Origin: a virus
IMG/VR virus record: IMGVR_UViG_3300009130_001605
Coordinates: 11,939 to 75,938 of that record
Length of the DNA stretch: 64,000 bases
Strand: one strand, 5' to 3'
Below, piece by piece: positions 800 to 64,000 of this stretch. The position numbers and the translations under genes were made by a program. The notes under the pieces were generated by a model. The model did not search any database. It was not told the origin of the DNA and saw nothing but the letters and a program-made list of their open reading frames with translations. The stretch's first letter is position 1. Every line of letters starts with the position of its first letter.

Positions 800-1764
800 T
801 GGGTTTTAACGATTTAGTAAATCAACAGTTAGGTGGAAAAGGTCAAGGTGACACTATGTCTTCTATGGGTAACCAAAGCAAGAGTAACATTTACCCTGCA
901 GTTGTTTTAAATGTCGATGATCCAGCTGAACAAAACAGGATTGTAGCAAGAATTGTTTCATTAGATGAAACTGGTGAAATGAAAGGTGGTAGAGACAGGG
1001 AAACTCCTGATGATCAACTTCCTTTTTGTATACCTATGGTTCCTGAGTTTATTCACGTTAGACCTCTTGTGGGAGAAATGGTTCTGATTTATTTAGAGAA
1101 TCCGTCTGACAACTCTGCCCCAAGGTATTGGATGGGTCCAATGATCACATCCAAACTAAAACTGAAATATCAATCTTTCGAAGAAGCGGATGGCATTTTT
1201 AGATACACAGACTTTTTCGGAAACGAAAAGCTAGAAAACAAAACACAGGCTTCATTAGCAATACCCCAGCAGGCAGATATTGCAATTCAGGGAAGAGATG
1301 ACGCAGATGTTATCTTGAGACCAAGAGAAGTTCTTATTTCGGCTGGTAAATTTATTGAGAACAGTTTTGATTTAAACGTAAATGCTCCATGTAATATCCA
1401 ACTAAAACAATATGATCAAGTTGAAAGTGATGAGGTAGAATCTTTTTCACAACAAAACTTACAAGCTAACAATGTTAACATATATTCTCCTTTTGGTAAA
1501 TTTAGGGATGCAGAAAAAGGGGCTAAAATCGAGAGTACAAACCAAGACCTTCAATATTTAGGTGTACTTGCAAACAAATTGCATCCAGCAGTGTTCGGTG
1601 ATGAACTAATCGTACTTCTAGATCTTATGGTTAAAGTTATTCTTACACATGTTCACACTCCACAAGCAAAGCTTGTGGAGAATGCGAATTCAAATGAATT
1701 GGCTGAATACGTTCTCGAAGGTAAACTTCAAGACATGATTTCTAAATTTGTTAGATTTAATTAA
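799..1764 (+). CDS. baseplate central spike, gp5/gpV-like OB-fold protein
   Basis: N-terminal V.NVDDP...RIVARI...P.VGEMV...RYWMG pattern of the gp5/Vgr OB fold; C-terminal HVH, the metal-binding spike-tip motif. Confidence 0.75.
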   Translation: MGFNDLVNQQLGGKGQGDTMSSMGNQSKSNIYPAVVLNVDDPAEQNRIVARIVSLDETGEMKGGRDRETPDDQLPFCIPMVPEFIHVRPLVGEMVLIYLENPSDNSAPRYWMGPMITSKLKLKYQSFEEADGIFRYTDFFGNEKLENKTQASLAIPQQADIAIQGRDDADVILRPREVLISAGKFIENSFDLNVNAPCNIQLKQYDQVESDEVESFSQQNLQANNVNIYSPFGKFRDAEKGAKIESTNQDLQYLGVLANKLHPAVFGDELIVLLDLMVKVILTHVHTPQAKLVENANSNELAEYVLEGKLQDMISKFVRFN

Positions 1765-3494
1765 AAAGGTCTTTGAACTTTAAAGTCAATTACGTTAGGT
1801 AAAACTCTTACAGAACCTAGCTCTTCAACTCTAAATTCTATTTTATAAGTTTGGTTATTCAATAACCAAGAGGTGTCTAAATCGAAATATTGTTCTTGAC
1901 ATTTATTTCTAACAACTTTATTTATATTTGTCCAAGGAATGACCTCATCTTGATTATTCATTATCAACCTATAAGATATAGAATAAAAAGGAGAAGGTTT
2001 TTTACGAGAATAATTTACTCTAACATTTGCAAATATTCTTATTTTTTCATCATTTGTTAGAATAGAATTGCCCTCAAGTCCATAGATATTTAAAGTGTAA
2101 TCGTTTATACTTGGAGAACTGTTTAAATAGTAATTATCTTGTATTTGAAAATGTTGAACATAATCTTGTTGGTCAACACCTGGTACAAAAGTAACACCTT
2201 GCCAAACATCAGAGTATTTTTGTCCCCTTGTTGCGTTAGGTAAATCAGTTGGGTTTATATCTACATAATAAGTACCAACACCTGCTTGATTGGGAGTAAG
2301 TCCAGTTATTACATCATTTCCTGATGGGTCTTTAATAGAAACTGTTGAGGCAGAATAATAGTTAGCCGTATTGTTTCCACTAAATGTGTATAAGTATAAT
2401 CTGCTAACTCTATTATTTGTAACTTGCTCACGATCATCAACAATAACTTGATCATAATTAACTTCAATATACGGCTTGAAGGCACTATTTGTTTTCTCAG
2501 TTAAGAAAGAAGCAATACTTCTTGTGTTTGTGGACATTAGTTCAAACGGTCTTGTGTAAGCTAAACCTATACCATAGTTAGTTCCACCTGTTAGCCAGTA
2601 ATTAACTAGTTTTGTAATATCTATCGAAACATCTTCATCTCCTATATCAAAATGCTGACTTGACCACAGAGGGTCTAAGTAAGAAAATGTGCTAGAAGAT
2701 AAAACAAATGAATCGCCAGAAGTTATAGTTGCCCCTGTGCTTCCAACTCCAATATCTATTCCTAAGTTAATGAAATCTAAACTTGAAGTAAGTCCAGTTT
2801 GTAAATCATAAGTTGTATTTGATCCAGACAACGGATTGAAAATGTATGTAGTATCATTTCCAGATACGCTTATGTTTACACCTGTTGTTGCAGTTGATGA
2901 TAAGATATTGAATCCGTAAAAGGCGGATGAGTTGTTTCCTTCTTTTTTGAAAGTCAATCCACTGTATGTAACGGATCCAGAATAAACATCAAGGTTTGTT
3001 GATGCTGTCGGATTCGAAAATACACCTGGCTCATCCCACGTTGTCAACATTGTTGCGTTATTCCAATTCGAGTAACCGCTTAACAAAGGGTTTCCTTGTT
3101 GTCTTACAATGTAATCTTCTTTCACCATGTCATAACCTCTGCCTTCATCCCAATCTTTGTTTATAGGGAAAGCAACAAGGTCAAAAGAAGTTGAGATAAC
3201 TTTTGTAAGCACATCGTATTCAAATTCTTTTTCTAATACAGCATCTCTTGGAATTGAGTTTGTCATTTTTAGAGTGTAGGATTTAACATTTCCACTCATA
3301 ATCTCTCCAGAAGAAAACCTGCTAGATAAACCATCTAAAGGGTATTTTGCAATATGCCTACTTATTGAGTTCCTTACAGAACCTACACCACCAAACCATA
3401 GTTCACTCATAGCATTTTGGCCACTATTAAAGGTTTCAAAAAGACCTGAGGCAATCGTATTACTTTTATCTGGATATATTCTAAATTTACTCAT
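1761..3494 (-). CDS. virion structural protein (DNRLRE-like beta-sandwich)
   Basis: WDEG.G, DITKLVNYW...NYGI and KPYIEVNYD motifs; located among baseplate genes with its own late-type motif. Confidence 0.55.
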   Translation of the reverse strand: MSKFRIYPDKSNTIASGLFETFNSGQNAMSELWFGGVGSVRNSISRHIAKYPLDGLSSRFSSGEIMSGNVKSYTLKMTNSIPRDAVLEKEFEYDVLTKVISTSFDLVAFPINKDWDEGRGYDMVKEDYIVRQQGNPLLSGYSNWNNATMLTTWDEPGVFSNPTASTNLDVYSGSVTYSGLTFKKEGNNSSAFYGFNILSSTATTGVNISVSGNDTTYIFNPLSGSNTTYDLQTGLTSSLDFINLGIDIGVGSTGATITSGDSFVLSSSTFSYLDPLWSSQHFDIGDEDVSIDITKLVNYWLTGGTNYGIGLAYTRPFELMSTNTRSIASFLTEKTNSAFKPYIEVNYDQVIVDDREQVTNNRVSRLYLYTFSGNNTANYYSASTVSIKDPSGNDVITGLTPNQAGVGTYYVDINPTDLPNATRGQKYSDVWQGVTFVPGVDQQDYVQHFQIQDNYYLNSSPSINDYTLNIYGLEGNSILTNDEKIRIFANVRVNYSRKKPSPFYSISYRLIMNNQDEVIPWTNINKVVRNKCQEQYFDLDTSWLLNNQTYKIEFRVEELGSVRVLPNVIDFKVQRPF

Positions 3495-3507
3495 TTTGAT
3501 GTTTTAT

Positions 3508-4028: not shown

Positions 4029-5891
4029 ATGGCAAGGACAAAAAAAAATCCAGACATTAACCTTTTAAGTAGAGATTTCCAAAGCATTAGATCTGATTTA
4101 GAATCTTTCCTTCAAGCATTTTACCCTGAAGTTTGGAAAGACTTTAACGTGACTTCACCTGGTATGGCATTAGTAGATTTAAATGCTTATGTAGGTGATT
4201 TATTATCTTATATTGCTGATAAAAAATATAATGAAAACTACCTTGATGGCGTTTCGGAAAGAAAGTCTGTTTATAGATTAGCGAAAACAAAAGGCTACAG
4301 ACCTCCAGGGTTTAGGCCTGGTGTTGCTATTGCAGACATTACAATAGAGGTTCCAGTTACTGCAGATGGGCCAAACCCAGATTACCTACCTATTTATAGA
4401 GAAGGGATGCAAATAAATGGTGGTGGTCAAATATATGAAACAGAATTTCCAATTGATTTTAGCTCAGATTTCTCTGAAGAAGGAACTGCGAATAGAACAA
4501 TTGAACCTATATTAAATACAAATCAAGATATTATTAGATATAGGATTGTAAAAAGGGAGAAAATTAGAGCAGGTGTAACTGTTATATATTCAGAAGAAGT
4601 CTTTCAAGAAGATGCAATTCCGTTTTACAGATTGTTTTTGCCAGAAAACAATGTGCTTGACATACAAAATGTAATAGCAATAAATCAAGTGGGTTTAAGT
4701 GATGTTCCGACATATCAAGAATTTAATGACCCAAACAATTCTTTTACAGAGGTTGACTTTCTTGCACAAAGCAAAGTTTTTGAAGAAGATCCAACTTCAG
4801 AAAGAGTTAATGGTGTTGCCATTGGTAAATTAATAGAAGTTAATAAAAGATTTGAAAAACATTTTTTAGCAGACGGTAGCTGTATGCTTCAGTTCGGTGG
4901 AGGAACACCGAGTTTTAATGCATATGAAAGTTATTTGAAAGATATTACTTCTGTTTCTGGAACAACTAACATAGATGCTTCTGTGTTGCTTGATAACACA
5001 GCTCTTGGTGAAACAGTTCCTGCAAACTCAACTGTGTTTGTTAAATACAGAATTGGTGGCGGTCTTAGTAGTAATGTTGGTCAAGGTGTCTTGACTGAAG
5101 CATCTAATATAGACGCTCTTATACTTGGGTCTGATCCAAAACTTAATCAACAAGTCATACAATCAACAAGGGTGTTTAATCCAATACCTGCTGTTGGAGG
5201 GGCAGGGTTACCGACTGTTGAGGAAATAAAGCATTTCACTGCTGGTAATCATGCAGCACAAGACAGGTGTGTTACTCTTAAGGATTATCTTGCTAAGTCA
5301 GCACAAATACCGAGTAAGTTTGGTGCACCTTTTCGTATACAAGGGAAAGTTGAAGACAACAAGGTTAAACTATACATATTATCCAGAGATGGTAATGGTA
5401 GATTAGTTTCTAACTCAACATCAACAATAAAAAACAACCTTGCAACCTGGTTGTCTCAATTTAGGATGATAAATGATTTCGTTGAGATTAATGACGGAAA
5501 AGTGGTAAACCTTCAATGCGAAGTAGACTTATTGGTTGACAAAACATTTAATGTAAACGAGATAAAACTGGCAGCTATTCAAGAGGTGAAAAACTTCTTA
5601 GATATCAGCAAAAAGCAAATGAATGAACATATTTATATTTCTCAAATAACAGATTTGATTAGAGAGATACCAGGTGTGATCAATGTTGTTGATATTCGTT
5701 TCTATAACATGGAAGGTGGAGGTTATTCGTCTACCGCAATCAGTCAAGCTGTTATTGATAGGACAATAGTACCTGGTACAGGTGGGTTTAGAACTCAAAT
5801 TGAGTATATTGATAATCAGATTTTTGGAACACCTTTATCTATGTTTGAGATAAAGTTTCCTTCTAAGGATGTTAAGGTGCGTTGCGGATAG
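4029..5891 (+). CDS. gp6: baseplate wedge protein gp6 / baseplate J-like
   Basis: RDFQSIR...WKDFN..SPGM.L.DL.AY, Y.IGGG..SNV, A.GG..., AQDRCVT..DY motifs. Confidence 0.88.
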   Translation: MARTKKNPDINLLSRDFQSIRSDLESFLQAFYPEVWKDFNVTSPGMALVDLNAYVGDLLSYIADKKYNENYLDGVSERKSVYRLAKTKGYRPPGFRPGVAIADITIEVPVTADGPNPDYLPIYREGMQINGGGQIYETEFPIDFSSDFSEEGTANRTIEPILNTNQDIIRYRIVKREKIRAGVTVIYSEEVFQEDAIPFYRLFLPENNVLDIQNVIAINQVGLSDVPTYQEFNDPNNSFTEVDFLAQSKVFEEDPTSERVNGVAIGKLIEVNKRFEKHFLADGSCMLQFGGGTPSFNAYESYLKDITSVSGTTNIDASVLLDNTALGETVPANSTVFVKYRIGGGLSSNVGQGVLTEASNIDALILGSDPKLNQQVIQSTRVFNPIPAVGGAGLPTVEEIKHFTAGNHAAQDRCVTLKDYLAKSAQIPSKFGAPFRIQGKVEDNKVKLYILSRDGNGRLVSNSTSTIKNNLATWLSQFRMINDFVEINDGKVVNLQCEVDLLVDKTFNVNEIKLAAIQEVKNFLDISKKQMNEHIYISQITDLIREIPGVINVVDIRFYNMEGGGYSSTAISQAVIDRTIVPGTGGFRTQIEYIDNQIFGTPLSMFEIKFPSKDVKVRCG

Positions 5892-6490: not shown

Positions 6491-9442
6491 ATGGAACAAG
6501 TTTTATTGACAGGATCGACAAGGAGTGGGACTACACTGTTTGCTTTTAGCCCAACACCTTTTAGGAAAGGTATTGATCAAAGCACTGGGTATGTAACATT
6601 TAATGACATGGGCATAACAAGTGGTATTTACCAGTTTAGCGGAGATACTATATGGTCAAGAAATAACAGTAACCATTTTGCACCACTGTCTTCTGTTACA
6701 ACAAACTACCAAACTGGTTATACGTTTATACAAACAAGCGAAGATGTTATAAGCCAGAAAAGTAAAGATAGATTGATATCTAAGCTTCCAGGTATGGTTG
6801 AAGATGCTAATTCTAAGCAAAATTTAAGATACCTATTTAAAGATGAGCCTATTAACGACATTTTTTATAATGTGTCAATAACAAAGACTTTCGATACACT
6901 TGACACCTTTAATGTTTATAATTCAGTCTCTAATAGTTCTCCTATTTTAAACGCCAATACTGGTGTTGTATTCGGAAAATTAGAAGCTATTCAAAAAATT
7001 AAAAACCCACTACCTTTAGACGCTGATCACGAAGACAGGGATAATGTTAGAATCCCTTTAAGAAATGTTCCAATAGGAATTTTTCAAGAATCCGAAGAAT
7101 TTCCACAAACAACATCCGTTGATGAAAATGGAGATAGAATTAAGTTCTCTTTTAAAACAGAGTCTGAGTTTGCAGATTCAAGGTATTTTAATACAGAATC
7201 TCAAGAATATGATGAACAATTTTTAAACACTAATAATTACGACAAAATACCTGATCATTATAAATTGATGACTACAACTAATGAGAATGGTGAGTTTATT
7301 ATATATAATGTTCCAGTTGGAACACAATCTATTGTTTTTGAGGTCGATTTGCTTAAGCAAGGGTTGACTAAAGAAGAGGTTGCTTTAAATTTCTTTCCAT
7401 ATCCAACTAGTGATTCACCCAATATTGACACTGTTCCTCATTTCTTTTTTAGGCAAATACCAGTGGATGTTGTTCCTGCATGGGGCGATTTTCAAACTGG
7501 ATATACTGAAGTTAATATATCTGCAAATATAGATCTTAGAAAATGGGCAACTTACTATTTTGTTCCATCTTCATATGGTGGTTTTACAATGCCAGAACTT
7601 CCTGCAAACAATATTAACAACCCCTTGTCTATAGCAGTAAGAGATATGACGAAACCAAGTGCAGGTGGAGGATATAACCAAGAAGACTTAATGCCAAGTG
7701 AGATCGTACAAATTGGAGACACTTTAGATAGAGATACAGAACAAGAAATCTCTTGGTTTAATGAATTCATACAAAGAAAAAGTACTGCAAAATTTAGGCA
7801 CGATGATTTTTCTGTTATAAAATTACCTGCAAACATTTACCATCCAACAATGATAAACAGCGTTGAATCGGGAAATGCTATCAAAGAGGTTGGGGATCCA
7901 ATTGTTCTTAAAACAAATCCTGTACCTGGAACTTGGTTTGCATCATATCAATTTAAACAGTTTATAACTAGGGAGAATTATAGAACAACAGGTGCTGAGA
8001 GCAGGGGGATAAATGGTTCTGCTGGATTGGTTGTTTGGAGAAATCATTTTGATTTAACCTACCCACTTGGTCAACAAGAATATCCACCAAATGAAAGTGA
8101 AATTGAAGATCCAGCCAGTGTTGCATCAAACAACGAAACTTTAACTGATCCTTTATATGAACAGCCATGGAGTTATTTTTACCCAAATGAAGTCTCAATA
8201 CCAACAGTTCCAGTTAACATTATTAATGACAACCCAAATGATGGAGAGGCAAAATACTCTGACGGAGATCTAATTGGTGTAAATACAGACACATCTGTTG
8301 ATGAAACTGGTGGTTATGGTTTGCAAAAAAGAATAGATTCAACAGAAGAATTTATAAACAAATTTTCACAAAGAGTGACCAAAAATTATGTGTATAAATA
8401 TGAACAGGGTAATTTTTGGGATGAAAAATATGGAACAGGTTATGCTAATCACCCAGATAGAGCCACTAATAGTTCTGTTGAGAACGGTGAAGGATATCAA
8501 AGAGTAGAGTGTGGTTTTGCATATTTCATGAGGCCAATGGATTGGCCTATTATAAAACAAAGTGATGATAAGGATTACGTTGATCCAAGTGATCATGATA
8601 CAAATATTTTCCTTAAAGAAGGCACTCAAGACATGAGTCTTAATTTGGACGGGACATCAAGTCAAATCACAGGAAGGTTAGATATTTATAGAATTTTAAA
8701 CCCAAGTCCATCTAATTTAATTTCTCCAGATCCAATTGTTACACCAACTTTTATAAACATTGATTTACAAAGAATTTACAGACCAGCAGGTGAATCTGGT
8801 ACAAGAACTTGGTTAAGGTATCCAGTAGGAAACGAAGAGGTAGATAGAAATAATTTACATTTGTTAGGCTATTTTAGGAATGATGATAAAAAATTTACAG
8901 AAACAACAATTTTTATAACAAACCTTGGGGAAAGGACTGTAAACATTAGAGGTGTTGAAACACCTCCTAATAAATCATTTTCAACCATTTTAAACAGTAG
9001 TAGTGATCTGGTTTTTTCATTACCAGGTAATGGTGAGTTTGATTTCGGTCAATTTAAGTTCACAAAATCAAATTACAGTATAAGATTCGAAGAATACAGT
9101 GCAGGTAATCAAGGGGGTACAAGTTGGAATGGTGATCCATGGTACGTCCCATCAATTTCAAAAGATGCTAATGAAGAAGGGGAAGTGATGACATATTATT
9201 ATGTAACCCAAATTTCAGGTAATTATAGGAATGGTAAGTTTAAAAATAATGGAGGCTGTGATGATGAAGGTCAAAGGCAAAACGACAATTCAAACACCTA
9301 CATTGATGGGTTGGTTGTGGGATTAAGTGCAAACAACAAAGAAACTGATGGCAACTCCATTTTAGATCCTGGTAGTATAAATGTAAACTGGACAGGTTGT
9401 GAATTAAATGATAAGCAGTGGATTCCTTATGAATGGAAATAG
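6491..9442 (+). CDS. large virion/baseplate protein with carboxypeptidase-regulatory-like beta-sandwich
   Basis: 983 aa; GVVFG...IPL.NV.I...TTTNENGEFII.NVPVG.Q pattern. Confidence 0.6.
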   Translation: MEQVLLTGSTRSGTTLFAFSPTPFRKGIDQSTGYVTFNDMGITSGIYQFSGDTIWSRNNSNHFAPLSSVTTNYQTGYTFIQTSEDVISQKSKDRLISKLPGMVEDANSKQNLRYLFKDEPINDIFYNVSITKTFDTLDTFNVYNSVSNSSPILNANTGVVFGKLEAIQKIKNPLPLDADHEDRDNVRIPLRNVPIGIFQESEEFPQTTSVDENGDRIKFSFKTESEFADSRYFNTESQEYDEQFLNTNNYDKIPDHYKLMTTTNENGEFIIYNVPVGTQSIVFEVDLLKQGLTKEEVALNFFPYPTSDSPNIDTVPHFFFRQIPVDVVPAWGDFQTGYTEVNISANIDLRKWATYYFVPSSYGGFTMPELPANNINNPLSIAVRDMTKPSAGGGYNQEDLMPSEIVQIGDTLDRDTEQEISWFNEFIQRKSTAKFRHDDFSVIKLPANIYHPTMINSVESGNAIKEVGDPIVLKTNPVPGTWFASYQFKQFITRENYRTTGAESRGINGSAGLVVWRNHFDLTYPLGQQEYPPNESEIEDPASVASNNETLTDPLYEQPWSYFYPNEVSIPTVPVNIINDNPNDGEAKYSDGDLIGVNTDTSVDETGGYGLQKRIDSTEEFINKFSQRVTKNYVYKYEQGNFWDEKYGTGYANHPDRATNSSVENGEGYQRVECGFAYFMRPMDWPIIKQSDDKDYVDPSDHDTNIFLKEGTQDMSLNLDGTSSQITGRLDIYRILNPSPSNLISPDPIVTPTFINIDLQRIYRPAGESGTRTWLRYPVGNEEVDRNNLHLLGYFRNDDKKFTETTIFITNLGERTVNIRGVETPPNKSFSTILNSSSDLVFSLPGNGEFDFGQFKFTKSNYSIRFEEYSAGNQGGTSWNGDPWYVPSISKDANEEGEVMTYYYVTQISGNYRNGKFKNNGGCDDEGQRQNDNSNTYIDGLVVGLSANNKETDGNSILDPGSINVNWTGCELNDKQWIPYEWK

Positions 9443-10131: not shown

Positions 10132-10689
10132 ATGGAAGATAACGTTAGAAAACATAAAATTTATATAGACATAGAGCCAACTGTAAACGGTGCAGTGGGA
10201 ACTGTGGGTACAACTGGTGTGACAATAGACAATTCAGAAGTGTTTTATAAAATAAAACACTCAGACGGAACTTTTCACAATTACCCTGAGAATGATTTTT
10301 ACATAAACATACCTGTTTATAAATCTGAAAGGGTTTTTGAATATATAGATTTACAAAGAGAAGATGCTATCCACACAGTTCAGAGACAAGAAATAAATCC
10401 TTTTTTTATTGAATATGAGTTTTTTAATTCAGTTACTTTTAGTAGAATAAATAAAGGTGATGACTTAGACGACAATAATATTAGTTTCATTAAAAGTGTC
10501 GTGTCAGAAGTTGCAAATTCTAGTGACAGTTATGTTAGAGAATGGTATGATAATGCTGGAAAGTTTAAGTTTCCATGGAACGCTGGCACACCTAATGAAG
10601 TTACAAAAGATGATCTTGACAAATCCTCTATGAATAAAGATGGTATAGTGTCAAAATCAACTGTTTACCCAATTGACATAAACAACTAA
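10132..10689 (+). CDS. hypothetical structural protein
   Basis: About 185 aa, preceded by TATTTATT at 10120. Confidence 0.6.
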   Translation: MEDNVRKHKIYIDIEPTVNGAVGTVGTTGVTIDNSEVFYKIKHSDGTFHNYPENDFYINIPVYKSERVFEYIDLQREDAIHTVQRQEINPFFIEYEFFNSVTFSRINKGDDLDDNNISFIKSVVSEVANSSDSYVREWYDNAGKFKFPWNAGTPNEVTKDDLDKSSMNKDGIVSKSTVYPIDINN

Positions 10690-11360
10690 TGCAATCTTAT
10701 AAATTAACGATATATTCAGGTTCTGAAACAACAAACATTGTGACAGGATCAACGCTAAGTTTTGATGGTGATTATTATTCATACGATCAATCTGGGTTTA
10801 ACCTTGGGGTTGTAACAGAGTTTAATGTTCGACAGTATCTTAACAATCCTAACAATGAAGGTGTTGCAGTTGACTTTTTCACATATTTAACAGCAAACAC
10901 AAGTAATAGTGAATTTGTAGAGATAGCAAATAGTAATAAAAAATTAGCAGATTCATTTGTTGAGTATTATTCAACATCTGTAACAAGTGGCCTAACAACA
11001 CCGATTTCAATTATAGACAATAGTTTAACTGGAACAAGTGCTGTCACTGTCACAAATTATAATTATGATCTTAGTGACGCAGGTTCAACGTCTAATCCTT
11101 TAGGTTTTCCAGACACTATAATTAAGGGCGGTAATAGAATTGGTACTGAAACAGAATCTTTGACAACTTATACTAATGAACAAAGTTTTTTTATTCCAGT
11201 TAAAATAAAAAGAAGTAATTTAGATGTTGCAAGAATTAATTTCTCTGAATTTTCTGAAGATTCTACAAAAGTAATAAATGGTCAAAATGTTTATTTAACC
11301 AAAGGCTTTGTCGATTTAAATAAAAATGAAGACCCAGCATCATTTTGGTATGACAGATAA
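10689..11360 (+). CDS. Ser/Thr-rich structural protein (possibly continues by frameshift to 11635)
   Basis: TAATG-coupled; the -1 frame is open from 11354 into the next ORF. Confidence 0.65.
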   Translation: MQSYKLTIYSGSETTNIVTGSTLSFDGDYYSYDQSGFNLGVVTEFNVRQYLNNPNNEGVAVDFFTYLTANTSNSEFVEIANSNKKLADSFVEYYSTSVTSGLTTPISIIDNSLTGTSAVTVTNYNYDLSDAGSTSNPLGFPDTIIKGGNRIGTETESLTTYTNEQSFFIPVKIKRSNLDVARINFSEFSEDSTKVINGQNVYLTKGFVDLNKNEDPASFWYDR

Positions 11361-50257: not shown

Positions 50258-50773
50258 ATGATATTCGATTACAATTTCTCAGAAATAGAAGACAACCTTA
50301 ACTTACCTGAACTAGGAGAGTTTGAAGGATTTCAAGATGCAGATGACGATTTACGTCCTGTTGCAAACTTTATTAAAAGCAAAACGTTTCACAACGAGTA
50401 CATAGAGCCAAATAGAATTAAGTTTTTCTATACGAACAAACCAAAGAAAGACGGTGGTAGGTATGTAACAGGAACTTTAATGGTTCGTTCGGAAATTGAA
50501 AGACTTGTTGATGATAGATACGACTTCATTGCCATTATCTATTACCCAGTGTTCAAAATGCTTGAAGACGAGGATAAAATCATCCAATTAGACAAAGTTC
50601 TTTGTGGTATTGACTTAGGAACCCTTGAGAAGCCTGTAGTAAAAAAGCAGCAACCAGATTCGAAAGAATTTATTGGAAACTTGAGCTTTTATGGTAGAGA
50701 CAAAGTTCACGACAGTTCTGAGACAGTTCACTTAGCAACAGAATCAATCGTCCAATCAGAAAAAGAAGGGTAA
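50258..50773 (+). CDS. phage metallopeptidase-like protein lacking HExxH
   Basis: RI.F...K.KK.GG..V.G....YDFI.II....F..L....K...LD(KVLCG)...D..EF.....YG. Confidence 0.55.
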   Translation: MIFDYNFSEIEDNLNLPELGEFEGFQDADDDLRPVANFIKSKTFHNEYIEPNRIKFFYTNKPKKDGGRYVTGTLMVRSEIERLVDDRYDFIAIIYYPVFKMLEDEDKIIQLDKVLCGIDLGTLEKPVVKKQQPDSKEFIGNLSFYGRDKVHDSSETVHLATESIVQSEKEG

Positions 50774-50774
50774 A

Positions 50775-51059
50775 ATGAATGTAGAAATAATAAAATCTAC
50801 CTTCCAAGCTATTGTTAGTCAATTCGTGGCAGAAAGAGATGCTACTGTTGCTAACATCAACCAACTTCTTTACTCTAAAGGTGATAACGTAGAGGCGTTA
50901 ACCGAGTTAATGTCCAAATTGACTTTGGCTAAAATGAATATAGCCAACACTCAAGAAGAATTAAACAAAGCTATGACTTTAATAGCTTTAGAAAAACAAA
51001 CACCAAAGGATAACGGTTCTCAAGAACCAGAGATCCCTTCGGGAAATAGACCAGAATAA
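50775..51059 (+). CDS. hypothetical helical protein
   Basis: 94 aa. Confidence 0.65.
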   Translation: MNVEIIKSTFQAIVSQFVAERDATVANINQLLYSKGDNVEALTELMSKLTLAKMNIANTQEELNKAMTLIALEKQTPKDNGSQEPEIPSGNRPE

Positions 51060-51061
51060 AC

Positions 51062-51292
51062 ATGGTAATAACACTTAAAATAATAATTTGCATTTTCCTA
51101 CTTGCCATAGGTATAGCAGGGTATTCTATATTCAGAATGTTCAAAGATTCCATTGACTCTGAAGATTATGATAATATCTCATTGCTAGGTAAATTATTAA
51201 ATCAGCTGCTGTTCACTACAATAGCAGCTGGTTTACTTTCCTTGATCTCATTCTTATCGGTTGTTTTGTTTTCTACCATTACAATTTCATAA
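51062..51292 (+). CDS. small two-TM membrane protein
   Basis: Two hydrophobic segments. Confidence 0.65.
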   Translation: MVITLKIIICIFLLAIGIAGYSIFRMFKDSIDSEDYDNISLLGKLLNQLLFTTIAAGLLSLISFLSVVLFSTITIS

Positions 51293-51293
51293 A

Positions 51294-51599
51294 ATGTTTA
51301 ATTGGATTAAGAAAAAAATAAGACATTCAAAATTAAACTTCTATCTACAAAACTTTTTGTTTAATGTTTCTTTTTGGCTTAGATGTAGAAAGCTTTATAA
51401 AACCATTGGGTATAGAAAGCGAACAGGAAACTTCGATATTGATGAAGTTGGTAGAATGCATTACAAATACACCACTGTTAAAAAAAAGAGGTTTGTTGGA
51501 TACGTGTATAAAAACGACATCTATTTAGATAACCCTGGAATGCAAATAAAAGACAGGGAACAATGGGAATCTTGGAGAAAGAAAAATTTGATTAAATGA
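51294..51599 (+). CDS. hypothetical basic protein
   Basis: ATG 51294, MFNWIKK. Confidence 0.6.
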   Translation: MFNWIKKKIRHSKLNFYLQNFLFNVSFWLRCRKLYKTIGYRKRTGNFDIDEVGRMHYKYTTVKKKRFVGYVYKNDIYLDNPGMQIKDREQWESWRKKNLIK

Positions 51600-51625
51600 A
51601 ACCAACTAGAAATAGTTGGTTTTTT
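51599..51625 (+). terminator. intrinsic terminator
   Basis: AAACCAACTA-gaaa-TAGTTGGTTTTTT. Confidence 0.8.
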
Positions 51626-51685
51626 ACTTACAGCTCACGATATTGGTTTTTTTGTGATATTTATAGAAAATAAATATTTCCATCG

Positions 51686-55779: not shown

Positions 55780-57063
55780 ATGGGATTAGGATTTCGAATA
55801 ATACAACCACCACAAACACCTAATGAGGGTAGGGCTGACATAAATTACAACTTTGCTTTATTATCGGGTGTAACTAGTATTAATTTAACTGGACTAACAA
55901 GTGGAGCGAGTACTTTTGATATAACATCTGGTACTTCTGAGAACGGAACACTTACGCTTATTACTTCTGGAGGTAGTACTATTAATATTGCCATCCCAAC
56001 TGTTTCTAACAGAGTTTTAAATGGTTTTGAAACAGCTTATGCTATCGATAACAATTTTGAACTAACCGTTTCAGCTGGTACATACAATATTAACGACACA
56101 ACTTATACGGCACCAGAAACTGTTTTAAACCTTGTTTCTAATGATGCAGAACATGATAGACTAGATGTTATTGTAGGAGATGAGCTTTCAGCTGTAACTA
56201 TAATATCTGGTACTGCTGCTCAAAACCCAGTTGCACCTGTTGTATCAGAAGATAAAGTTTTAATTTCATACATAAACATACCTGGTCAGACATCACAACA
56301 AATTTTTAATGGTAATAGAACTGTAAAGCGTTCAGGTTTACCAAACATAAATGCTGGAGGTGAAACAGTGATGGATTGGCTTGAAAATTATTTCTTCCCA
56401 TTTATACCTTCCACTCTTAGCATAAACTCTCATTCTTTGAAAGAAATTGGGACCACTTATAGTCCAAACATTGATTTCATACTTACACTTAATGACGAGA
56501 CAACTGTAACAGGCAGGAGAGTTATAGATGTAACAGATTCAAACACTGTTGTTTATAATCCAGCAACTAATAATGAAACTTTTAATGCAGTAAATGTGAC
56601 AACAGATAATACTTGGAAAAACGAGGCTGATGTTGATAACAACGGAAGCCCGACAACAATATCAAGTAGTAACAGTACAGTTAGTTTTATTTACCCATGG
56701 TTTTATGGAACAGTTGCATCAGGAGGAGCTCCGTCAGGGAGCAATAGGCCAGGTTCAGATCAAGCATTAATTAACTCTGGAACAAAGTCTGTATCAAACA
56801 GTAATGGGACATTGACAGTGTCTTACAATAGTACGTCAGATGACTACATATGGTTTGCAATACCTTCTACAAGTACATCGAAAACAAAATGGTATGTTGA
56901 TGCATTAAACAATGGTTCTATAGGTGGTGCTGTAAATTTATTTCCAGACTTTGACTCGGTTAGTATAGACTCACCTACCGTTTTATGGAACGGTGTGTCT
57001 TATAAGATATATGTAAGTAACTATCAATCAAGCGTGTCTTCTATTCAATTAAAAAATTCTTAA
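55780..57063 (+). CDS. tail-fibre chain protein 1 (C-terminal YP.FYG domain)
   Basis: C-terminal domain of about 125 aa is highly similar to that of 58607; late motif at 55747. Confidence 0.7.
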   Translation: MGLGFRIIQPPQTPNEGRADINYNFALLSGVTSINLTGLTSGASTFDITSGTSENGTLTLITSGGSTINIAIPTVSNRVLNGFETAYAIDNNFELTVSAGTYNINDTTYTAPETVLNLVSNDAEHDRLDVIVGDELSAVTIISGTAAQNPVAPVVSEDKVLISYINIPGQTSQQIFNGNRTVKRSGLPNINAGGETVMDWLENYFFPFIPSTLSINSHSLKEIGTTYSPNIDFILTLNDETTVTGRRVIDVTDSNTVVYNPATNNETFNAVNVTTDNTWKNEADVDNNGSPTTISSSNSTVSFIYPWFYGTVASGGAPSGSNRPGSDQALINSGTKSVSNSNGTLTVSYNSTSDDYIWFAIPSTSTSKTKWYVDALNNGSIGGAVNLFPDFDSVSIDSPTVLWNGVSYKIYVSNYQSSVSSIQLKNS

Positions 57064-57072: not shown

Positions 57073-58581
57073 ATGTCAATTATATTAAATGATAACTTAA
57101 AAATTAACGCTGGAAAGCCAGTGGATTCCAAATACCTTAATGGAACTGTTGATTATGTTTCTGTGGCAGAGGTAAATGGTTTAATACCAATATCTGAAAG
57201 ACACCCTGGCCTTACAGTTAGGGTCAATTTAATTGAATATTGGTATGAGTCATCTGTAGATGACATAGGATTAGTTGCAAAAGGTACAGGTTCATTAGCA
57301 AGTGTATTTGTTCAAGACGAAACAACTTCCTCTATAAAGCCAGTATCTGGCGGTACGCCTGTTTCAACAGGGTCTTATTCTATGGTTGTTGGTGGTAAAA
57401 GCAATGAAGCTAGTGGGGATTATTCATTAGCCTCAGGTTATTACACAACAGCAACAACAATTGCATCACATGCTGAGGGTTATGAAACATTATCATCTGG
57501 GTTTAAAGCTTCTCATGCTGAAGGTAATGGGACTTTAGCATCAGGTAATTTTGGATCACATTCAGAAGGAAGTGGGACCGTTGCTTCTGGTGATTATTCA
57601 CATGCAGAAGGTGGAGGGACTACAGCTAGTAGCAGAGCAGCTCATGCTGAAGGTTTTGGTACATTAGCAAGCGGAAATCAATCTCACGCAGAAGGGTTGG
57701 GTACAATGGCAACTGATCAAAGCACTCACGCTGAAGGTAATCAAACCTCTGCTGTTACATTAAATTCACATTCTGAAGGTAATGCAACCCTAGCTTTTGG
57801 TGAAGACTCACATTCAGAAGGTTCTTTTACCAGGGCATTAGGAAACTCTTCACATGCTGAAGGTCAACAAACATCGGCAACAACTTTAGCGTCTCACGCT
57901 GAAGGTAGGTCAACATTGGCCTCTGGTAATTATGCACACGCTGAAGGGACTTTCTCTCAAGCTATTGGAGATTCTTCACATGCTGAAGGTAAAGAAACTA
58001 TTTCATTTGGAATATATTCTCATGCAGGTGGATTAAGTTCAACTGTATCTGGAGAAACTTCTTTCATTCACTCAAATAATTCAACAATTGAAGTTGGGTC
58101 AAATAACTCATCTATACTTGGCGGTTCAAACAACAGGTTATTAGCTCTTGCAACAGGGTCAACAATTCTTGGTGGAACTGGAATTACAGGTACAACACAA
58201 GATACAGTTTATGGTATTAATTTCGATGCTTCTGGTAGCATTTACTCTGGCGGAACAAATCTTTCAGACATATTTATTGCATCAGGGTCTCCAAACAATT
58301 TAAACAATGTCACGTTCAAATCAGCAAGCTCAACTTTATTAGAGAGTGAGGCAGGTCTGGTTATAGTTACAGGAAATAATGTAATATTAACACTACCAAA
58401 TTCACCAGCAACTGGTACAGAATTTAAAATTAAAGATGGATCTGGAAACGGTTCTACAGATACAATAATTATTAGTGGAAACACTCATGGTGTTGATGGG
58501 TTTGTTAGCACAACAATAGAAGAGGATTATGGGTCTTTGACTTTTATATTCGATGGAGTAAATGATTACATGATATTATAA
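57073..58581 (+). CDS. tail fibre with about 14 SHAEG repeats and a gp9/gp10-like C-terminal domain
   Basis: N-terminal MSI.LNDN.KINAGKP; SHAEG repeats; C-terminal LP.SP..G.EFKIKD.SG. Confidence 0.8.
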   Translation: MSIILNDNLKINAGKPVDSKYLNGTVDYVSVAEVNGLIPISERHPGLTVRVNLIEYWYESSVDDIGLVAKGTGSLASVFVQDETTSSIKPVSGGTPVSTGSYSMVVGGKSNEASGDYSLASGYYTTATTIASHAEGYETLSSGFKASHAEGNGTLASGNFGSHSEGSGTVASGDYSHAEGGGTTASSRAAHAEGFGTLASGNQSHAEGLGTMATDQSTHAEGNQTSAVTLNSHSEGNATLAFGEDSHSEGSFTRALGNSSHAEGQQTSATTLASHAEGRSTLASGNYAHAEGTFSQAIGDSSHAEGKETISFGIYSHAGGLSSTVSGETSFIHSNNSTIEVGSNNSSILGGSNNRLLALATGSTILGGTGITGTTQDTVYGINFDASGSIYSGGTNLSDIFIASGSPNNLNNVTFKSASSTLLESEAGLVIVTGNNVILTLPNSPATGTEFKIKDGSGNGSTDTIIISGNTHGVDGFVSTTIEEDYGSLTFIFDGVNDYMIL

Positions 58582-59527: not shown

Positions 59528-62500
59528 ATGTCAATTAATTTAAATGATAATATAAAAATAAATGCAGGAAAACCTTCTGAGTCTAAATACTTAAATGGTG
59601 TTGTTAATTACACCTCTGTATCAGAAGCAAATTCTCTTGTACCAAAAGCGGAAAGGCATTTAGGACTTACAGTATTATTAGATGGCGTGGAATACTGGTG
59701 GAAATCAGGAGTGGAAGACGTAGATCTGATTACTAAAACAAGTGAAAGCGATGGGAGTTTTTCTGATTTTAAAGTAATTACAACAGCAGACACTTTGGGT
59801 AGCCTTGGTTATATCTCATTAGATGACGGAAGTCCATTTGCATATGTAGTTGGTGTTAGTGATTATGGCTCACCTTCTGTTTATTATGGTCTTTCGGCAG
59901 GTACTTTCAACCTTTATGATAACGGTGGTAATACTGGTATTGGTACATTTGTTTTATCTGGATTAAGAGAAGGTTCCTCAAATATAAGTGGTAGCTCTTT
60001 AAGTGGTGGTTTTGGTCACACTGCCATTGGTCAAAACGCACTATCAAACATTGAAGGTGGTATTTATGATACTGCTGTTGGTTTTAATGCAATGGGTAAC
60101 AGCTCAAGAACTAATTTTCAAGGGGGAAACGTTGCGGTTGGTAAAGATGCTGGTTCTAACATGGGAGATGTAAGTAATAATGTTGCAATAGGTATTTCAA
60201 CGTTGCAAAATATTTCAGCTGGTACTCAAGACGGAGACTTCAATGTTGCATTAGGGTGGAGAGCCCTTAGGGAAACAAAAAATGGAGAACAAAATTTAGC
60301 AATAGGTTCTTCTGCAATGAGGTATTCTAATAACGTAGGAGGTAATATTGCCATTGGTACATTAGCATTACTTAATTATTCTGGATCAGGAATAGATAAT
60401 GTGTTTGATGGTAATGTGGCCGTTGGTCAATCGGCTGGTGAAAATTTGTCTGGTTTTGATAACATCTTGTTTGGGCAGCAATCAGGCTTTAATGCAGGTG
60501 GTGATCACAACATTTTTTTAGGAAGAAACTCAGGTAGAGATATTACATCACCAGACTCAACTATTTTAATTGGACCTTACACAGATTCGTCTAAATCTGA
60601 CATACATAACGCTGTAGGTATTGGTTCTGGTGTCACAGTTGCTCAAGATGACACTGTTGTTTTTAGGCCAAATGCAAGCATTGGTCTTGGTACAAATACG
60701 CCAGAGGCACAATTACATGTAACAGGAAGCATCCTTTCAAATCAGTCAATTTCAGCAGAGACAATTTTCTCTGGAGATACTGATGTTAGTGAATTATTTG
60801 CACTTAAAAACAGTTTCTCTCAATTTGAGATTGTTAGTGCAAGTACACAAGTTGGGGATCCAGGTCACATTTTGTTAGATGGTGTTCCAACTGCATATTT
60901 CATGGAAGGTACTTTCACAGAGGCATCAACTTATTTTGGTTATTCAGCAGGTTCTTTTGGTGATTCAAATTTTGGAGGAAACGTAGGGTTTGGTACTGAA
61001 GCTTTAGGAAACTCCAGTAGTTCAAATTCATATGCCAATACAGCTATAGGATCTTTCTCTATGGGAGATTATGACGGAACAAACTATCATAACACAGCCA
61101 TAGGATTTGAGTCTCTTAAGTCTATAAGTGCTGGGACTCATGATGCAGGGTATAATACCGCATTAGGTTCTAGAACATTCAGAGATTCAACAAATGCATT
61201 TGCTAGTTTAGCAATAGGTTACGAAGCCCTTAGGGACTCTGTTGAATCTTCTGGTAACATTGCCATAGGTTATCATGCTCTTAGGGGTGCTACTTTTACA
61301 CCTTATGGACCAGGATCTGTGCAAGCAGTGTTTGCAATTGGGTTAAACTCAGGTAGGGATTCTTTTGGTTCTAAAAACTTATTCATAGGATCTGAGACAG
61401 GTAGGGATAACTCAGGTGTTGACAATGTATTAATAGGTCATCAAGCAGGACACGCAATTGAAGCTGGCCTTGGTGAATTTCTAACTGGTTCTAGCATGGT
61501 AACAATGGTTGGTTCTGAATCATATTCTGACAAATCAGACGTTACAAACGCTGTTGCACTTGGATATAGATCAAGATTGGCACAAGACAACACATTTATT
61601 GTTGCAAACGGATTAGACGTTGGTATTGGAACTAGTACTCCAGAGGCAATGTTGCATGTAACTGGAAACGTATTGTCAGATCAGTCAATTTCAGCAGAGA
61701 CAATTTTCTCTGGAGATACTGATGTTAGTGACTTATTCTTATCAAGTAATGCAATCTTACCTTCTGCTGAATATCTTATTGTATCTTATGTAGATACAAT
61801 CGATGGCTCTGATGCTAATGGTTCGGTTGGAACTAGCAAAGCATTTCAAACTATTATATCTGCAACTTCACAATCAAACGAATACATAACCAATAGCGGT
61901 ATTGAAGGTGCTAAGGCATTAGTTGTTGTTAGGAGAGGTACATATTATGAGAACTCCATAAACAGAGAACATGTTGATATGTATTTTGACAGAGGTTCAG
62001 TTGTTATATCATCAGTTGCTGGAAGACCTGTATTTTGTGATTTCCTTAATGATAGTGGTGGTAATAAACATCCATTAAACATAACTGTAACTGGTAAAGG
62101 TAGCTTCTACCACACCAACTTCAGACCTTTTAATGACTCACAAGCCATAGCAACAAATAATGCCAATACGAAAGAATTTAATTTCGAGGCTTATGAAATC
62201 GATGGTTTCCAGAATTTCGGAAATAATCAGCAAACATTCAACTATTCAGATTTAAGAATAAGGTTCTTTATTGATTTTCATAACAATAAGAATATCAACA
62301 TGGTTAATTGCACGTTTTTAATGGGACTATCAACAGGCCATTATCTTGGTGATAATGTATCAGTTTCTTGTGATAAATGTGAAATGATATTGCCGTCAGA
62401 TGGTTATGATTCATTACTTGACATACAAGACTATTCAGGAGGAACTGTTGACACCATAACAATGGATGGGTTGTTTGCTCCTGTGAACACTTCTGCAATG

Positions 62501-63244
62501 ACTAGAATTGATATTAGGGATTATGTGCCTGCTGCTATTATAACAGAGCCTCAAATTGCAGCTATACATCATGTTACTGACAACACAGTTGGTGGTAGTT
62601 TCTACAACTTTAGATTGTCGATTACTAATTCAGTTGCTAGAATAAGAAAAGAAAGATGTATGGGTGTGAACGTTACTCAAAACATAGATGTTGATAATTC
62701 TGTTTCAGAGAGAGGCTATGTAATAATAAAAGATCTTCACATTGAAGATGAAACTGTTGGAAGAGACACAACGGGTATAGTTACAGGTAAGAAAAGTACA
62801 GTTACAGACAACCTTCAGTTAGGGTTGAATTATTATTTCACAAACACAAGCGTTGAAACAGATGTTGTACAAGCTGTTGGTCCTGAGGGGACTGACACTG
62901 GTATATCATACATTGATTTAACTAAAGCATATAGACCACTTACAGTAGGTGGTGAAGGAACTGAATTAACGAAACTTTATGGTGGTACTTCTTATACAGC
63001 TTCTACGCCTGGAGTGGTATCAATTAGTGCAGGAACAGCATTCGCTTTAAGTTTACCTAGCACACCTAGTGTAGGTGATAAATTTACCATTAAGGATTCT
63101 TCTGGAAGTGCAAGTACATACAATATAACAATAAATGTAGATGGTGGTTCTTATTTAATTGATGGTTCTTCGTCAGAAACTTTAACAGAAAACTACGAAT
63201 CATCAACTTATATATTTGATGGAGATATTTATATAAACATATAA
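59528..63244 (+). CDS. long tail fibre/adhesin: duplicated N.AIG beta-roll modules, a possible beta-helix region, and a gp9/gp10-like C-terminus
   Basis: N-terminus shared with 57073; NxA[IVL]G repeats; two IG.GT.TPEA.LHVTG; C-terminus shared with 57073. Confidence 0.8.
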   Translation: MSINLNDNIKINAGKPSESKYLNGVVNYTSVSEANSLVPKAERHLGLTVLLDGVEYWWKSGVEDVDLITKTSESDGSFSDFKVITTADTLGSLGYISLDDGSPFAYVVGVSDYGSPSVYYGLSAGTFNLYDNGGNTGIGTFVLSGLREGSSNISGSSLSGGFGHTAIGQNALSNIEGGIYDTAVGFNAMGNSSRTNFQGGNVAVGKDAGSNMGDVSNNVAIGISTLQNISAGTQDGDFNVALGWRALRETKNGEQNLAIGSSAMRYSNNVGGNIAIGTLALLNYSGSGIDNVFDGNVAVGQSAGENLSGFDNILFGQQSGFNAGGDHNIFLGRNSGRDITSPDSTILIGPYTDSSKSDIHNAVGIGSGVTVAQDDTVVFRPNASIGLGTNTPEAQLHVTGSILSNQSISAETIFSGDTDVSELFALKNSFSQFEIVSASTQVGDPGHILLDGVPTAYFMEGTFTEASTYFGYSAGSFGDSNFGGNVGFGTEALGNSSSSNSYANTAIGSFSMGDYDGTNYHNTAIGFESLKSISAGTHDAGYNTALGSRTFRDSTNAFASLAIGYEALRDSVESSGNIAIGYHALRGATFTPYGPGSVQAVFAIGLNSGRDSFGSKNLFIGSETGRDNSGVDNVLIGHQAGHAIEAGLGEFLTGSSMVTMVGSESYSDKSDVTNAVALGYRSRLAQDNTFIVANGLDVGIGTSTPEAMLHVTGNVLSDQSISAETIFSGDTDVSDLFLSSNAILPSAEYLIVSYVDTIDGSDANGSVGTSKAFQTIISATSQSNEYITNSGIEGAKALVVVRRGTYYENSINREHVDMYFDRGSVVISSVAGRPVFCDFLNDSGGNKHPLNITVTGKGSFYHTNFRPFNDSQAIATNNANTKEFNFEAYEIDGFQNFGNNQQTFNYSDLRIRFFIDFHNNKNINMVNCTFLMGLSTGHYLGDNVSVSCDKCEMILPSDGYDSLLDIQDYSGGTVDTITMDGLFAPVNTSAMTRIDIRDYVPAAIITEPQIAAIHHVTDNTVGGSFYNFRLSITNSVARIRKERCMGVNVTQNIDVDNSVSERGYVIIKDLHIEDETVGRDTTGIVTGKKSTVTDNLQLGLNYYFTNTSVETDVVQAVGPEGTDTGISYIDLTKAYRPLTVGGEGTELTKLYGGTSYTASTPGVVSISAGTAFALSLPSTPSVGDKFTIKDSSGSASTYNITINVDGGSYLIDGSSSETLTENYESSTYIFDGDIYINI
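60741..61731 (+). repeat. perfect 52-bp direct repeat (60741-60792 and 61680-61731)
   Basis: ATCAGTCAATTTCAGCAGAGACAATTTTCTCTGGAGATACTGATGTTAGTGA occurs twice, 939 bp apart and in frame. Confidence 0.9.
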
Positions 63245-63254
63245 CAAAAACAAA

Positions 63255-64000
63255 ATGGGATATAAACATTCAAAAAAATTAAATAAATTTTCAGGTTCCA
63301 CCCTTTATTCAGGATCAACAGACATAAGTGATTTATTTCTTCCAATAGGAACTCCTATTGGAGGAGATTCCCCATTCACAGATGGAACAGGGACAAGTGC
63401 AATAAAACCTGTGGACGGATATAATACATCTTCTGGGTATTACTCAATGGTTGCTGGTGGTAAAGGAAACACTGCATCAAGTTATCATTCACACGCAGAA
63501 GGGTATAACACAACTGCTTCTGGTAACTATGGATCTCACTCAGAAGGTTATTATACAACTGCAAATGGCGATTCATCTCATGCTGAAGGGTATTACACAA
63601 CTGCATCTGGACTCAACTCTCATGCTGAAGGGTCTAATACATTAGCATCTGGAATTGATTCTCATGCTGAAGGGACTCTTACAGTAGCAAGTGGAAATAG
63701 GTCTCATGCTGAAGGTAGAGAAACAGAAGCAAGTGGTAGATACTCACATGCAGAAGGAAAAAACACTAGGTCTTATGGTTGGTATTCTCACTCAGAGGGA
63801 AAAGATACATTGGCAGCAGGACAATTTTCTCATGCAGAAGGCGATAAAACAATAGCAGATGGAGTAGCTTCTCATGCAGGGGGTGAAAATTCTATATCTT
63901 CTGGACGAACTTCTTTCATTCACTCCGATTCTTCTGTTGTGGAAGATTATGGTTCATCTATAATTGGTGGATTTAGTAACAGACTTACAGCTGGTGCAAC
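63255..64000 (+). CDS. tail fibre with about 10 SHAEG repeats (runs off the window)
   Basis: Translated by hand: MGYKHSKKLNKFSGSTLYSGSTDISDLF...SHAEG repeats; no stop before the window end. Confidence 0.8.
   Translation, partial: MGYKHSKKLNKFSGSTLYSGSTDISDLFLPIGTPIGGDSPFTDGTGTSAIKPVDGYNTSSGYYSMVAGGKGNTASSYHSHAEGYNTTASGNYGSHSEGYYTTANGDSSHAEGYYTTASGLNSHAEGSNTLASGIDSHAEGTLTVASGNRSHAEGRETEASGRYSHAEGKNTRSYGWYSHSEGKDTLAAGQFSHAEGDKTIADGVASHAGGENSISSGRTSFIHSDSSVVEDYGSSIIGGFSNRLTAGA

Follow-up and report, generated by a model that had tools for sequence, protein, structure and literature searches.

A 64,000-nt stretch of viral DNA (the window), which spans bases 11939-75938 of a single 75,938-bp viral contig (IMG/VR record IMGVR_UViG_3300009130_001605; G000, locus L001), encodes a gp6-like baseplate wedge, fibres with SHAEG repeats resembling the YadA head, a 1238-aa tail-spike-like protein, and genes for replication and repair. 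Its tail proteins are studded with a four-residue word, [ST][GA]xT, and genes for a ColD-type dehydratase, Gmd, a GT4-like and a GT2-like glycosyltransferase (GT) lie on the same strand, 1.5-11.6 kb upstream of window base 1. The present analysis concerns this word and its possible relation to these enzymes. The contig is a fragment of an uncultured jumbo myophage, because the gene order of the window is collinear with 200.8-271.7 kb of a complete 372-kb relative (G003), the genomes of other relatives measure 187-389 kb, and CheckV puts the completeness of the contig at 23%. The 372-kb relative encodes a T4-gp23-like capsid protein and a sheath. Neither the tail proteins nor the GT had a match in the phage collection by blastn or tblastn, i.e., homologs of the motif-rich proteins or of the GT were not detectable there in cultured phages.

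The word was counted against expectations from 2000 whole-protein shuffles per open reading frame (ORF). All 52 ORFs of the window together contain 109 sites, where 34.3 are expected (z ~13), and the excess resides in the 21 tail, baseplate and fibre ORFs (103 sites vs. 28.6 expected, 3.6-fold): the remaining 31 ORFs, which are non-structural, hold 6 sites (6.1 expected), and the 14 ORFs upstream of the window hold 2 (3.0 expected). An earlier note on this DNA had proposed the word as a modification signal and suggested counting it against shuffles and comparing structural with non-structural proteins; the enrichment withstands both comparisons. The counts that the note listed per protein (proteins are designated here by the first window position of their gene) were reproduced for 20666 (11), 15636 (10) and 1761 (8), while 59528 carries 15 sites instead of the 10 listed. 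The near absence of the word from SbcCD (30554, 1 site) and from the cargo part of 26825 (0 sites in the whole protein) had also been described correctly.

Local composition is not the cause, since 103 sites vs. 30-33 expected (z 12.5-14) remain when proteins are shuffled in blocks of 10 to 100 residues. In a blind scan of all 8000 words of the form a-b-x-c, SAxT (32 vs. 5.9), TGxT (33 vs. 8.1) and SGxT (29 vs. 9.5) rank first if words of the SHAEG repeats and singleton Cys/Trp words are disregarded. Paralogous repeats hold about 25 of 99 sites; without these repeats 78 sites remain vs. 28.6 expected, which rules out repeats as the sole cause. Codon usage within the motif equals the background, with all synonymous codons in use, including both Ser codon families, so that a cause at the level of DNA or codons can be dismissed as well. 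An artefact of chance or composition might be suspected, given that structural proteins are rich in S, T and G, that related words (alternative spacings and the reversed word) are mildly raised (1.2-1.75x), and that ordinary tail proteins get to 1.5-1.7x. However, global and local shuffles refute such an artefact, the excess repeats in more than 100 independent loci, and every defined position of the word is specific. The excess is real and not an effect of composition; the likelihood of an artefact is practically negligible.

The positional specificity is sharp. Enrichment at position 1 is confined to S (4.0x) and T (3.2x), all other residues being at about 1 or less; N is neutral (1.0x) and D is strongly avoided (0.13x), which rules out an Asx/ST-turn. 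Position 2 is enriched for A (3.75x) and G (3.5x) only, and at position 4 only T is raised (3.6x), with S at 0.85x. Position 3 tolerates most residues, A and P not being enriched (~1.1x). The three pairwise components of the motif reach merely 1.2-1.3x, which implies that the three positions act together. The flanks are nearly uninformative (I at -2, Y/F/I at -1). General O-glycosylation in Bacteroidota is periplasmic and uses the sequon D-[ST]-[ALVIMT]. This sequon, which the earlier note had rightly regarded as different, is not enriched (47 vs. 45.2, 1.04x), and neither is N-x-[ST] (1.08x), so that both are excluded as explanations.

The proteins that carry the motif (Table 1) have unrelated architectures, from Ig/FN3-like beta-sandwiches and YadA-like repeats to a tail spike and, in the 372-kb relative, the sheath. 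A scan of the complete genome of this relative found an excess in a few blocks only, at 24.7 kb, 148-158 kb, 219-243 kb and 366 kb. These blocks include the sheath (9 sites vs. 2.4 expected), where 8 of the 9 sites are outside the conserved core of the sheath, with a cluster of 6 at residues 101-160, as well as fibre-like proteins with, e.g., 26 sites vs. 6.4 and 20 vs. 3.0. The gp23-like capsid protein (2 vs. 1.1) and its neighbours show no enrichment. Because sheath, outer baseplate and fibres are enriched and the capsid protein, the inner wedge and all enzymes are not, the motif is a trait of the tail exterior. The term "virion-wide", which the earlier note had used, therefore holds for the outside of the tail and fails for the inner wedge of the window (1 site vs. 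0.6) and for the capsid protein of the relative.

Table 1. Motif-bearing proteins and internal controls of the window, and sugar and glycosyltransferase genes upstream of it. Sites are given as observed vs. expected number of [ST][GA]xT.
Coordinates	Strand	Feature	Sites	Remarks
G000/L001 328-1497	+	ColD-type dehydratase		PDB 2gms, E 4.5e-58
G000/L001 1742-2776	+	Gmd		E 6e-138
G000/L001 7269-8534	+	GT4-like (GT-B), 421-aa		GT1-family domain, 34.9 bits vs. cut-off 26.4
G000/L001 8509-9450	+	GT2-like (GT-A), 313-aa		nearest Atlas clusters are viral GT2 families (0.98, 24/30)
window 1..542	+	window left edge		sugar/transferase genes upstream
window 1761..3494	-	577-aa tail/baseplate-module protein	8 vs. 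1.0 (z 7.4)	no family assignment; ortholog in G003 syntenic
window 4029..5891	+	gp6-like inner baseplate wedge	1 vs. 0.6	internal negative control
window 6491..9442	+	983-aa baseplate-module protein	5 vs. 1.3	directly after gp6-like wedge; no family assignment
window 10689..11360	+	223-aa protein	4 vs. 0.6	
window 14106..15599	-	497-aa fibre	9 vs. 4.2	YadA-head-like SHAEG repeats
window 15636..17366	-	576-aa protein	10 vs. 1.1 (z 8.4)	tandem Ig/FN3-like beta-sandwiches and CarboxypepD_reg domain
window 17370..20348	-	992-aa tail-module protein	7 vs. 1.6	no family assignment
window 20666..22726	+	686-aa conserved structural protein	11 vs. 1.9 (z 6.6)	no family assignment
window 23132..24238	+	368-aa protein	4 vs. 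1.0	paralog of 24761
window 24761..25873	+	370-aa protein	5 vs. 1.0	paralog of 23132
window 26825..53659	+	ORF block (SbcCD, nuclease, helicase, others)	not enriched	internal negative control
window 55780..57063	+	427-aa fibre-chain protein	4 vs. 1.6	
window 57073..58581	+	502-aa SHAEG-repeat fibre	10 vs. 3.1	YadA-like
window 59528..63244	+	1238-aa tail-spike/fibre protein	15 vs. 3.9 (z 6.0)	phrog_4636
window 63255..63998	+	fibre gene	3 vs. 1.5	cut by contig end

The fibres have sequence peculiarities of their own. In 14106-15599 and 57073-58581, a unit of ~14 residues that ends in SHAEG is repeated, with a strong match to phrog_25468 and a weak one to the YadA head; the structural set contains 35 copies of SHxE and 36 of HAxG, where ~1 of each is expected. 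Several sites of the 14106 fibre fall within the repeat unit AEGxxTSATTxxSHAEG. Several fibre genes share a short module, I-[FY]-S-G-[GDS]-T-[DN]-[LVI]-S-[DE]-[LI]-F, close to their ends (two copies in 59528-63244, and further ones in 63255-63998, 58607-59515, 14106-15599 and 57073-58581); this module adds some motif hits and has the look of a docking or joint element in the fibre chain. The sole motif hit of the 1153-aa SbcC-like protein (30554-34015), which the earlier note had taken for its Walker A, is located at residue 436 (YSGKTNF), far from the expected position of the SbcC Walker A.

The motif excess is shared by the relatives of this phage. Each of the 35 homologs of 15636 (31-56% identity) has 5-15 sites (1.3 expected), all 22 close homologs of 20666 carry 10-17 (2.2 expected), and the tail modules of 29 IMG/VR loci reach observed-to-expected ratios (O/E) of 3-6. 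At 79 further IMG/VR loci, which were found via a wide family alignment, the proteins other than the query homolog contain 2579 sites vs. 734; the motif loads of focal protein and neighbours are uncorrelated across these loci (rho -0.11), because nearly all of them are enriched. A profile search of 1.84 billion representatives yielded 678 members of the 20666 family, and the best 150 of these 678 have an overall O/E of 3-6.5. By comparison, the baseplate, tail and head region of T4 has an O/E of 0.99 and lambda one of 1.47. Three phages whose wedge matches that of the window end to end at 28-31% identity were also scanned: Flavobacterium phage immuto (vB_FspM_immuto), by its wedge the nearest cultured phage, reaches 1.69, Microcystis phage Mel-JY01 1.14, and LR756508, a 484-kb uncultured phage, 0.97. 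These five phages rule out a generic property of phage tails; the motif excess is a trait of the lineage.

At least 566 relatives of the phage are present in IMG/VR, where more than 560 related contigs carry the family; contigs of relatives have been binned with Flavobacteriales, Ferruginibacter, Prochlorococcus, a gammaproteobacterium and others. Six loci (L150-L155) place contigs of the group inside metagenome-assembled genomes or single-cell assemblies labelled Wolfebacteria, Methanobacterium, Prochlorococcus AG-409-L21, gammaproteobacterium, Flavobacteriales and Ferruginibacter. Most of these are likely mis-binned phage contigs; the contig from the Prochlorococcus single cell (83.8 kb) may be the record of an infection.

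How the motif evolves was analysed in the 20666 family, from which the comparisons of site turnover and of motif-poor homologs are taken. Among close homologs, conserved sites vary as a class: S and T are swapped, as are G and A, while the T at position 4 is kept. Their alignment has 43 motif columns, 21 of which are occupied in at most two sequences. The 26 motif-rich members have 133 distinct motif columns at a load of ~11 sites (~2 expected), and motif-rich pairs at 25-30% identity have 13% of their sites in common (with a tolerance of two columns), a turnover that alignment error inflates somewhat. Full-length members at 24-29% identity differ widely, some having 20-25 sites and others 0-1. 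The motif-poor members (P0085, P0146, P0163, P0140, P0121, P0063, P0081, P0062 and P0117) group as two small clades plus scattered singletons and have unrelated residues at columns that are motifs in the window phage; scans of IMG/VR, metagenomes and genomes for the contigs of these members gave only distant or no relatives. Because full-length homologs with 0-1 sites exist and sites turn over, the alignments clearly indicate that the fold does not require the motif. In its evolution, the motif behaves like a signal that is selected for load and not for position.

These observations bear on the possibility that the motif is merely a local turn or strand-capping element of beta-rich tail folds, with no enzyme involved. 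The location of the sites would suit such an element: in the AlphaFold models of 15636 and 20666, 9 of 10 and 10 of 11 sites, respectively, are found in loops or at strand ends, the earlier note having expected exposed loops, and 6 of the 11 sites of 20666 are in conserved loops of low confidence. Turns and strands typically prefer a small residue at position 2 and a beta-branched Thr at position 4, some sites belong to repeat units, and some are invariant across homologs (e.g., DTGFT and VTGAT in 15636, FTGNTYAEQ in 20666). However, the secondary structure around the sites is heterogeneous in the two models, full-length members of the 20666 family do with 0-1 sites, and the load is kept while the positions turn over. 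Neither D nor N stands in for S/T at position 1, nor S for T at position 4, and no such excess is seen in the Ig-like and baseplate proteins of T4, lambda, immuto, Mel-JY01 and LR756508. A motif that is independent of the fold, specific to a lineage, free in position and specific for hydroxyl residues and Thr weakens the purely structural explanation, which we consider unlikely.

Alternatively, the motif could be functional in itself or be read by something other than the phage GTs, e.g., by making contact with host glycans or water, by conferring protease resistance, or through recognition by a chaperone or a host enzyme. Its confinement to the exposed tail parts, which meet the host surface, and the maintenance of load independent of position would fit a direct function, and the connection of the GTs to the tail proteins is itself indirect. 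Yet no binding or stability motif of such a form was found in the literature searched, and strict cooperativity of three positions is more typical of recognition by an enzyme than of a bulk surface property. A function of this kind is, in our view, rather improbable.

The evidence fits a signal that is read in trans, and for its reader the conserved transferase pair that heads the structural module would be the obvious candidate. The search for glycosyltransferases that the earlier note had called for thus led to a GT pair and genes for guanosine diphosphate (GDP)-sugar enzymes directly upstream of the baseplate genes. The block of sugar and GT genes runs unbroken into the baseplate genes, an order that is kept in the 372-kb relative, and the GT2-like gene overlaps the end of the GT4-like gene by 26 bases. 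Named relatives of the GT4-like protein (BshA, SdgA, AmGGT) are weak matches that cover the donor-binding half only, and the match to the SdgA-type family NF047880 of NCBIfam (E 1e-4) is far below the family cut-off. The GT4-like gene is present in 5 of 5 close relatives (55-58% identity) and in 4 of 4 near-complete genomes of the wider group (29-36% identity); it is missing only from fragments that are 35-53% complete, in which absence is uninformative. The GT2-like gene is present in 10 of 10 large motif-rich genomes and always adjoins the GT4-like gene. In the three motif-free controls (immuto, Mel-JY01 and LR756508), which carry other genes with a GT1 domain, the pair was not found.

The first gene of the contig (328-1497) is confirmed by its sequence as a ColD-type 3-dehydratase dependent on pyridoxamine 5'-phosphate: its best PDB matches are 2gms, 3b8x, 2r0t and 3gr9, it has the DegT fold, the diagnostic His replaces the Lys that binds pyridoxal 5'-phosphate (GHHLST aligned to SHHIAT), and gmd follows directly. 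No ColC was identified on the 75,938-bp contig, which begins at colD; in the 372-kb relative, an RmlD-like reductase encoded 5 kb upstream of ColD and Gmd is a putative counterpart by family only. ColD and Gmd close a long glycan island in this relative, which further comprises three FkbM methyltransferases, an O-methyltransferase-like gene, GT11, GT17, GT10, a second DegT aminotransferase, the RmlD-like reductase and a B12-radical SAM enzyme. The contig analysed here starts inside this island, the content of which differs between relatives. In a 388-kb relative (G001:C1:123620-125584; L040, L043), the Gmd match falls into two parts, residues 1-237 and 230-332, inside a single 678-aa open frame, which suggests an intein-like or other in-frame insertion of ~320 residues.

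Two neighbours of these genes may be mentioned. L001:3891-5453, which lies 8 kb before the window in the interval from gmd to the GT, encodes a 520-aa protein that matches phrog_1745 ("DNA transfer protein", E 1e-146) and has 41% identity to its counterpart in the 372-kb relative, with no match in Pfam, NCBIfam or PDB. L001:9462-10403, a second 313-aa gene located 2.5 kb before the window, directly follows the GT pair. Neither of the two genes downstream of the GT had a match when PDB sequences were searched with profiles (for the second 313-aa gene, with a two-sequence profile). The word TATTTATW first appears after this gene: from G000 10422 onward (window ~-1500), it is located 9-33 nt upstream of many structural genes, for instance before window 1761(-), 3620, 10129, 11685, 14106(-), 17370(-), 26825, 40744, 48783, 49233, 51686 and 55780. 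A late-promoter word would fit this distribution, with the sugar genes in a different timing class.

Another possibility is that the motif is real and unrelated to the sugar genes, with phage DNA or the host envelope as the target of the GT pair and the island. Glycosylation of DNA and changes of the host serotype are common roles of phage GTs (PMC12619734), the sugar genes lack the late-promoter-like word, and the content of the island is variable between relatives. On the other hand, the GT pair heads the structural module in collinear genomes, and the motif itself would be left unexplained. Moreover, T4-type DNA glycosylation based on 5-hydroxymethylcytosine is unlikely, since the thymidylate-synthase homolog of the 372-kb relative (G003:C1:276298-277551) has the Asn-type site for dUMP, PFNIASY, and not the Asp of dCMP hydroxymethylases, so that no route to this base is visible; DNA modification based on 5-hydroxymethyluracil or by another route may still occur. 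This homolog has 417 aa with an N-terminal extension, and its Pfam match, which is interrupted near the C-terminus, covers 1-228 and then, ~80 nt on, 228-266. Overall, a separate role of the sugar genes appears quite improbable to us.

We therefore favour, at about an even chance, the reading of [ST][GA]xT as a sequon for the post-translational modification of exposed tail proteins, most likely by O-glycosylation. The excess, its positional specificity, its restriction to the tail exterior and the way it evolves are shown, as are the presence of the enzymes and their conservation; from these we infer the following scheme. The GT4-like (GT-B) and GT2-like (GT-A) enzymes would act on the tail proteins in the host cytoplasm, reading the motif and O-glycosylating it at the hydroxyl of either position 1 or position 4. 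Gmd and ColD could make a GDP-4-keto-3,6-dideoxyhexose of the colitose type, and the glycan might then be extended by the further transferases, methyltransferases and GDP-sugar enzymes of the variable island. Sheath, outer baseplate and fibres would presumably end up coated with sugar. The scheme in full, i.e., a sequon read by the GT-B/GT-A pair, a coat of methylated deoxy-sugars extended by the island, and drifting sites throughout a very large clade of uncultured jumbo phages, is more tentative and has somewhat less than an even chance.

Several points weigh against this sequon hypothesis. It draws on sequence patterns and two structural models instead of chemistry, and both models are of modest confidence (predicted local distance difference test scores of 70.5 for 15636 and 61.4 for 20666). 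The strictly conserved sites could be structural. The 12 genes that run from colD to the second 313-aa gene all lack a preceding TATTTATW, so that co-expression of the sugar and GT genes with the structural genes is not indicated. The acceptor of the GTs could be DNA, a lipid or a host glycan. Finally, the co-occurrence of GT pair and motif (10/10 vs. 0/3) is phylogenetically confounded, because one clade is contrasted with outgroups. Of the proposal in the earlier note that the motif is a signal for a phage-encoded modifier, the signal-like part is upheld by a load that is kept while positions turn over, whereas the link to the enzymes consists of co-occurrence at the level of the clade.

No description of the motif [ST][GA]xT was found in the literature searched, but several known systems invite comparison. 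The general O-glycosylation of Bacteroidota likewise relies on a short sequon of three defined positions, in which the hydroxy amino acid is followed by a small or methyl-bearing residue, and acts on many unrelated proteins. However, its sequon has D before the site and does not allow G at +1, whereas D precedes 3 of the 103 sites described here and G follows in 62 of 103, and the system is periplasmic, while phage tails assemble in the cytoplasm. Virus-encoded glycosylation is known from Vp54 of the chlorovirus PBCV-1, where it is N-linked, and from the fibril glycans of Mimivirus. These giant viruses resemble the phage group in having several transferases, Gmd and sugar methyltransferases, in bypassing the host secretory route, and in using non-canonical sequons, but they infect eukaryotic hosts; a bacteriophage with a candidate Ser/Thr linkage and tail proteins as targets is a different case. 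The adhesin O-glycosyltransferases SdgA and SdgB, which are cytoplasmic and of the GT-B type, are also GT4-type enzymes that modify many Ser residues in a short repeated context of a surface protein; their acceptor consists of S-D repeats, and the phage GT matches them weakly and in the donor half only. As to the GDP-L-colitose pathway (Gmd, ColD, ColC), Gmd and a ColD with the diagnostic His are present, but a ColC is missing from the genes identified on the contig.

The closest parallel among phages is provided by Che8-type mycobacteriophages, in which phage GTs are reported to glycosylate the C-termini of capsid and tail-tube subunits (Freeman et al. 2023, as described in PMC12619734). As proposed here, phage GTs would modify the structural proteins of their own virion in the cytoplasm and thereby form a glycan coat. 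The present lineage likewise encodes GTs: one with a GT1-family domain, the adjoining GT2-like gene, and GT10, GT11 and GT17 in the 372-kb relative. In the Che8 type as described there, the glycans are C-terminal on capsid and tail tube, whereas the candidate four-residue sites are dispersed over the proteins of the tail exterior and spare the capsid protein, which shows no enrichment. As far as tested, the enzymes of the two systems are not related, the GT having no match in the phage collection. "Moraphages" are uncultured aquatic jumbo phages associated with Bacteroidota, with genomes of 200-307 kb, a distant relationship to T4, and four core GT groups (PMC12619734). By this description, they are similar to the present group in being uncultured jumbo phages with several core GTs; the paper reports no motif and assigns no target to the GTs (PMC12619734).

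Even if the sites are unglycosylated, a sharply defined four-residue word that is free in position and under selection on exposed tail proteins needs explaining. If the sequon hypothesis is true, bacteriophages would have their first described system of protein glycosylation directed by a sequon, with sites that drift like those in the glycan shields of animal viruses. It would also explain the large glycan islands of jumbo phages, the target of which was unclear, and provide glyco-engineers with a short cytoplasmic O-glycosylation tag plus enzymes. Glycosylation of phage tails would then be widespread instead of being confined to a few mycobacteriophages, and it could be predicted from sequence, which would bear on how large environmental phages evade host defences, proteases or grazers, and how they tune adsorption.

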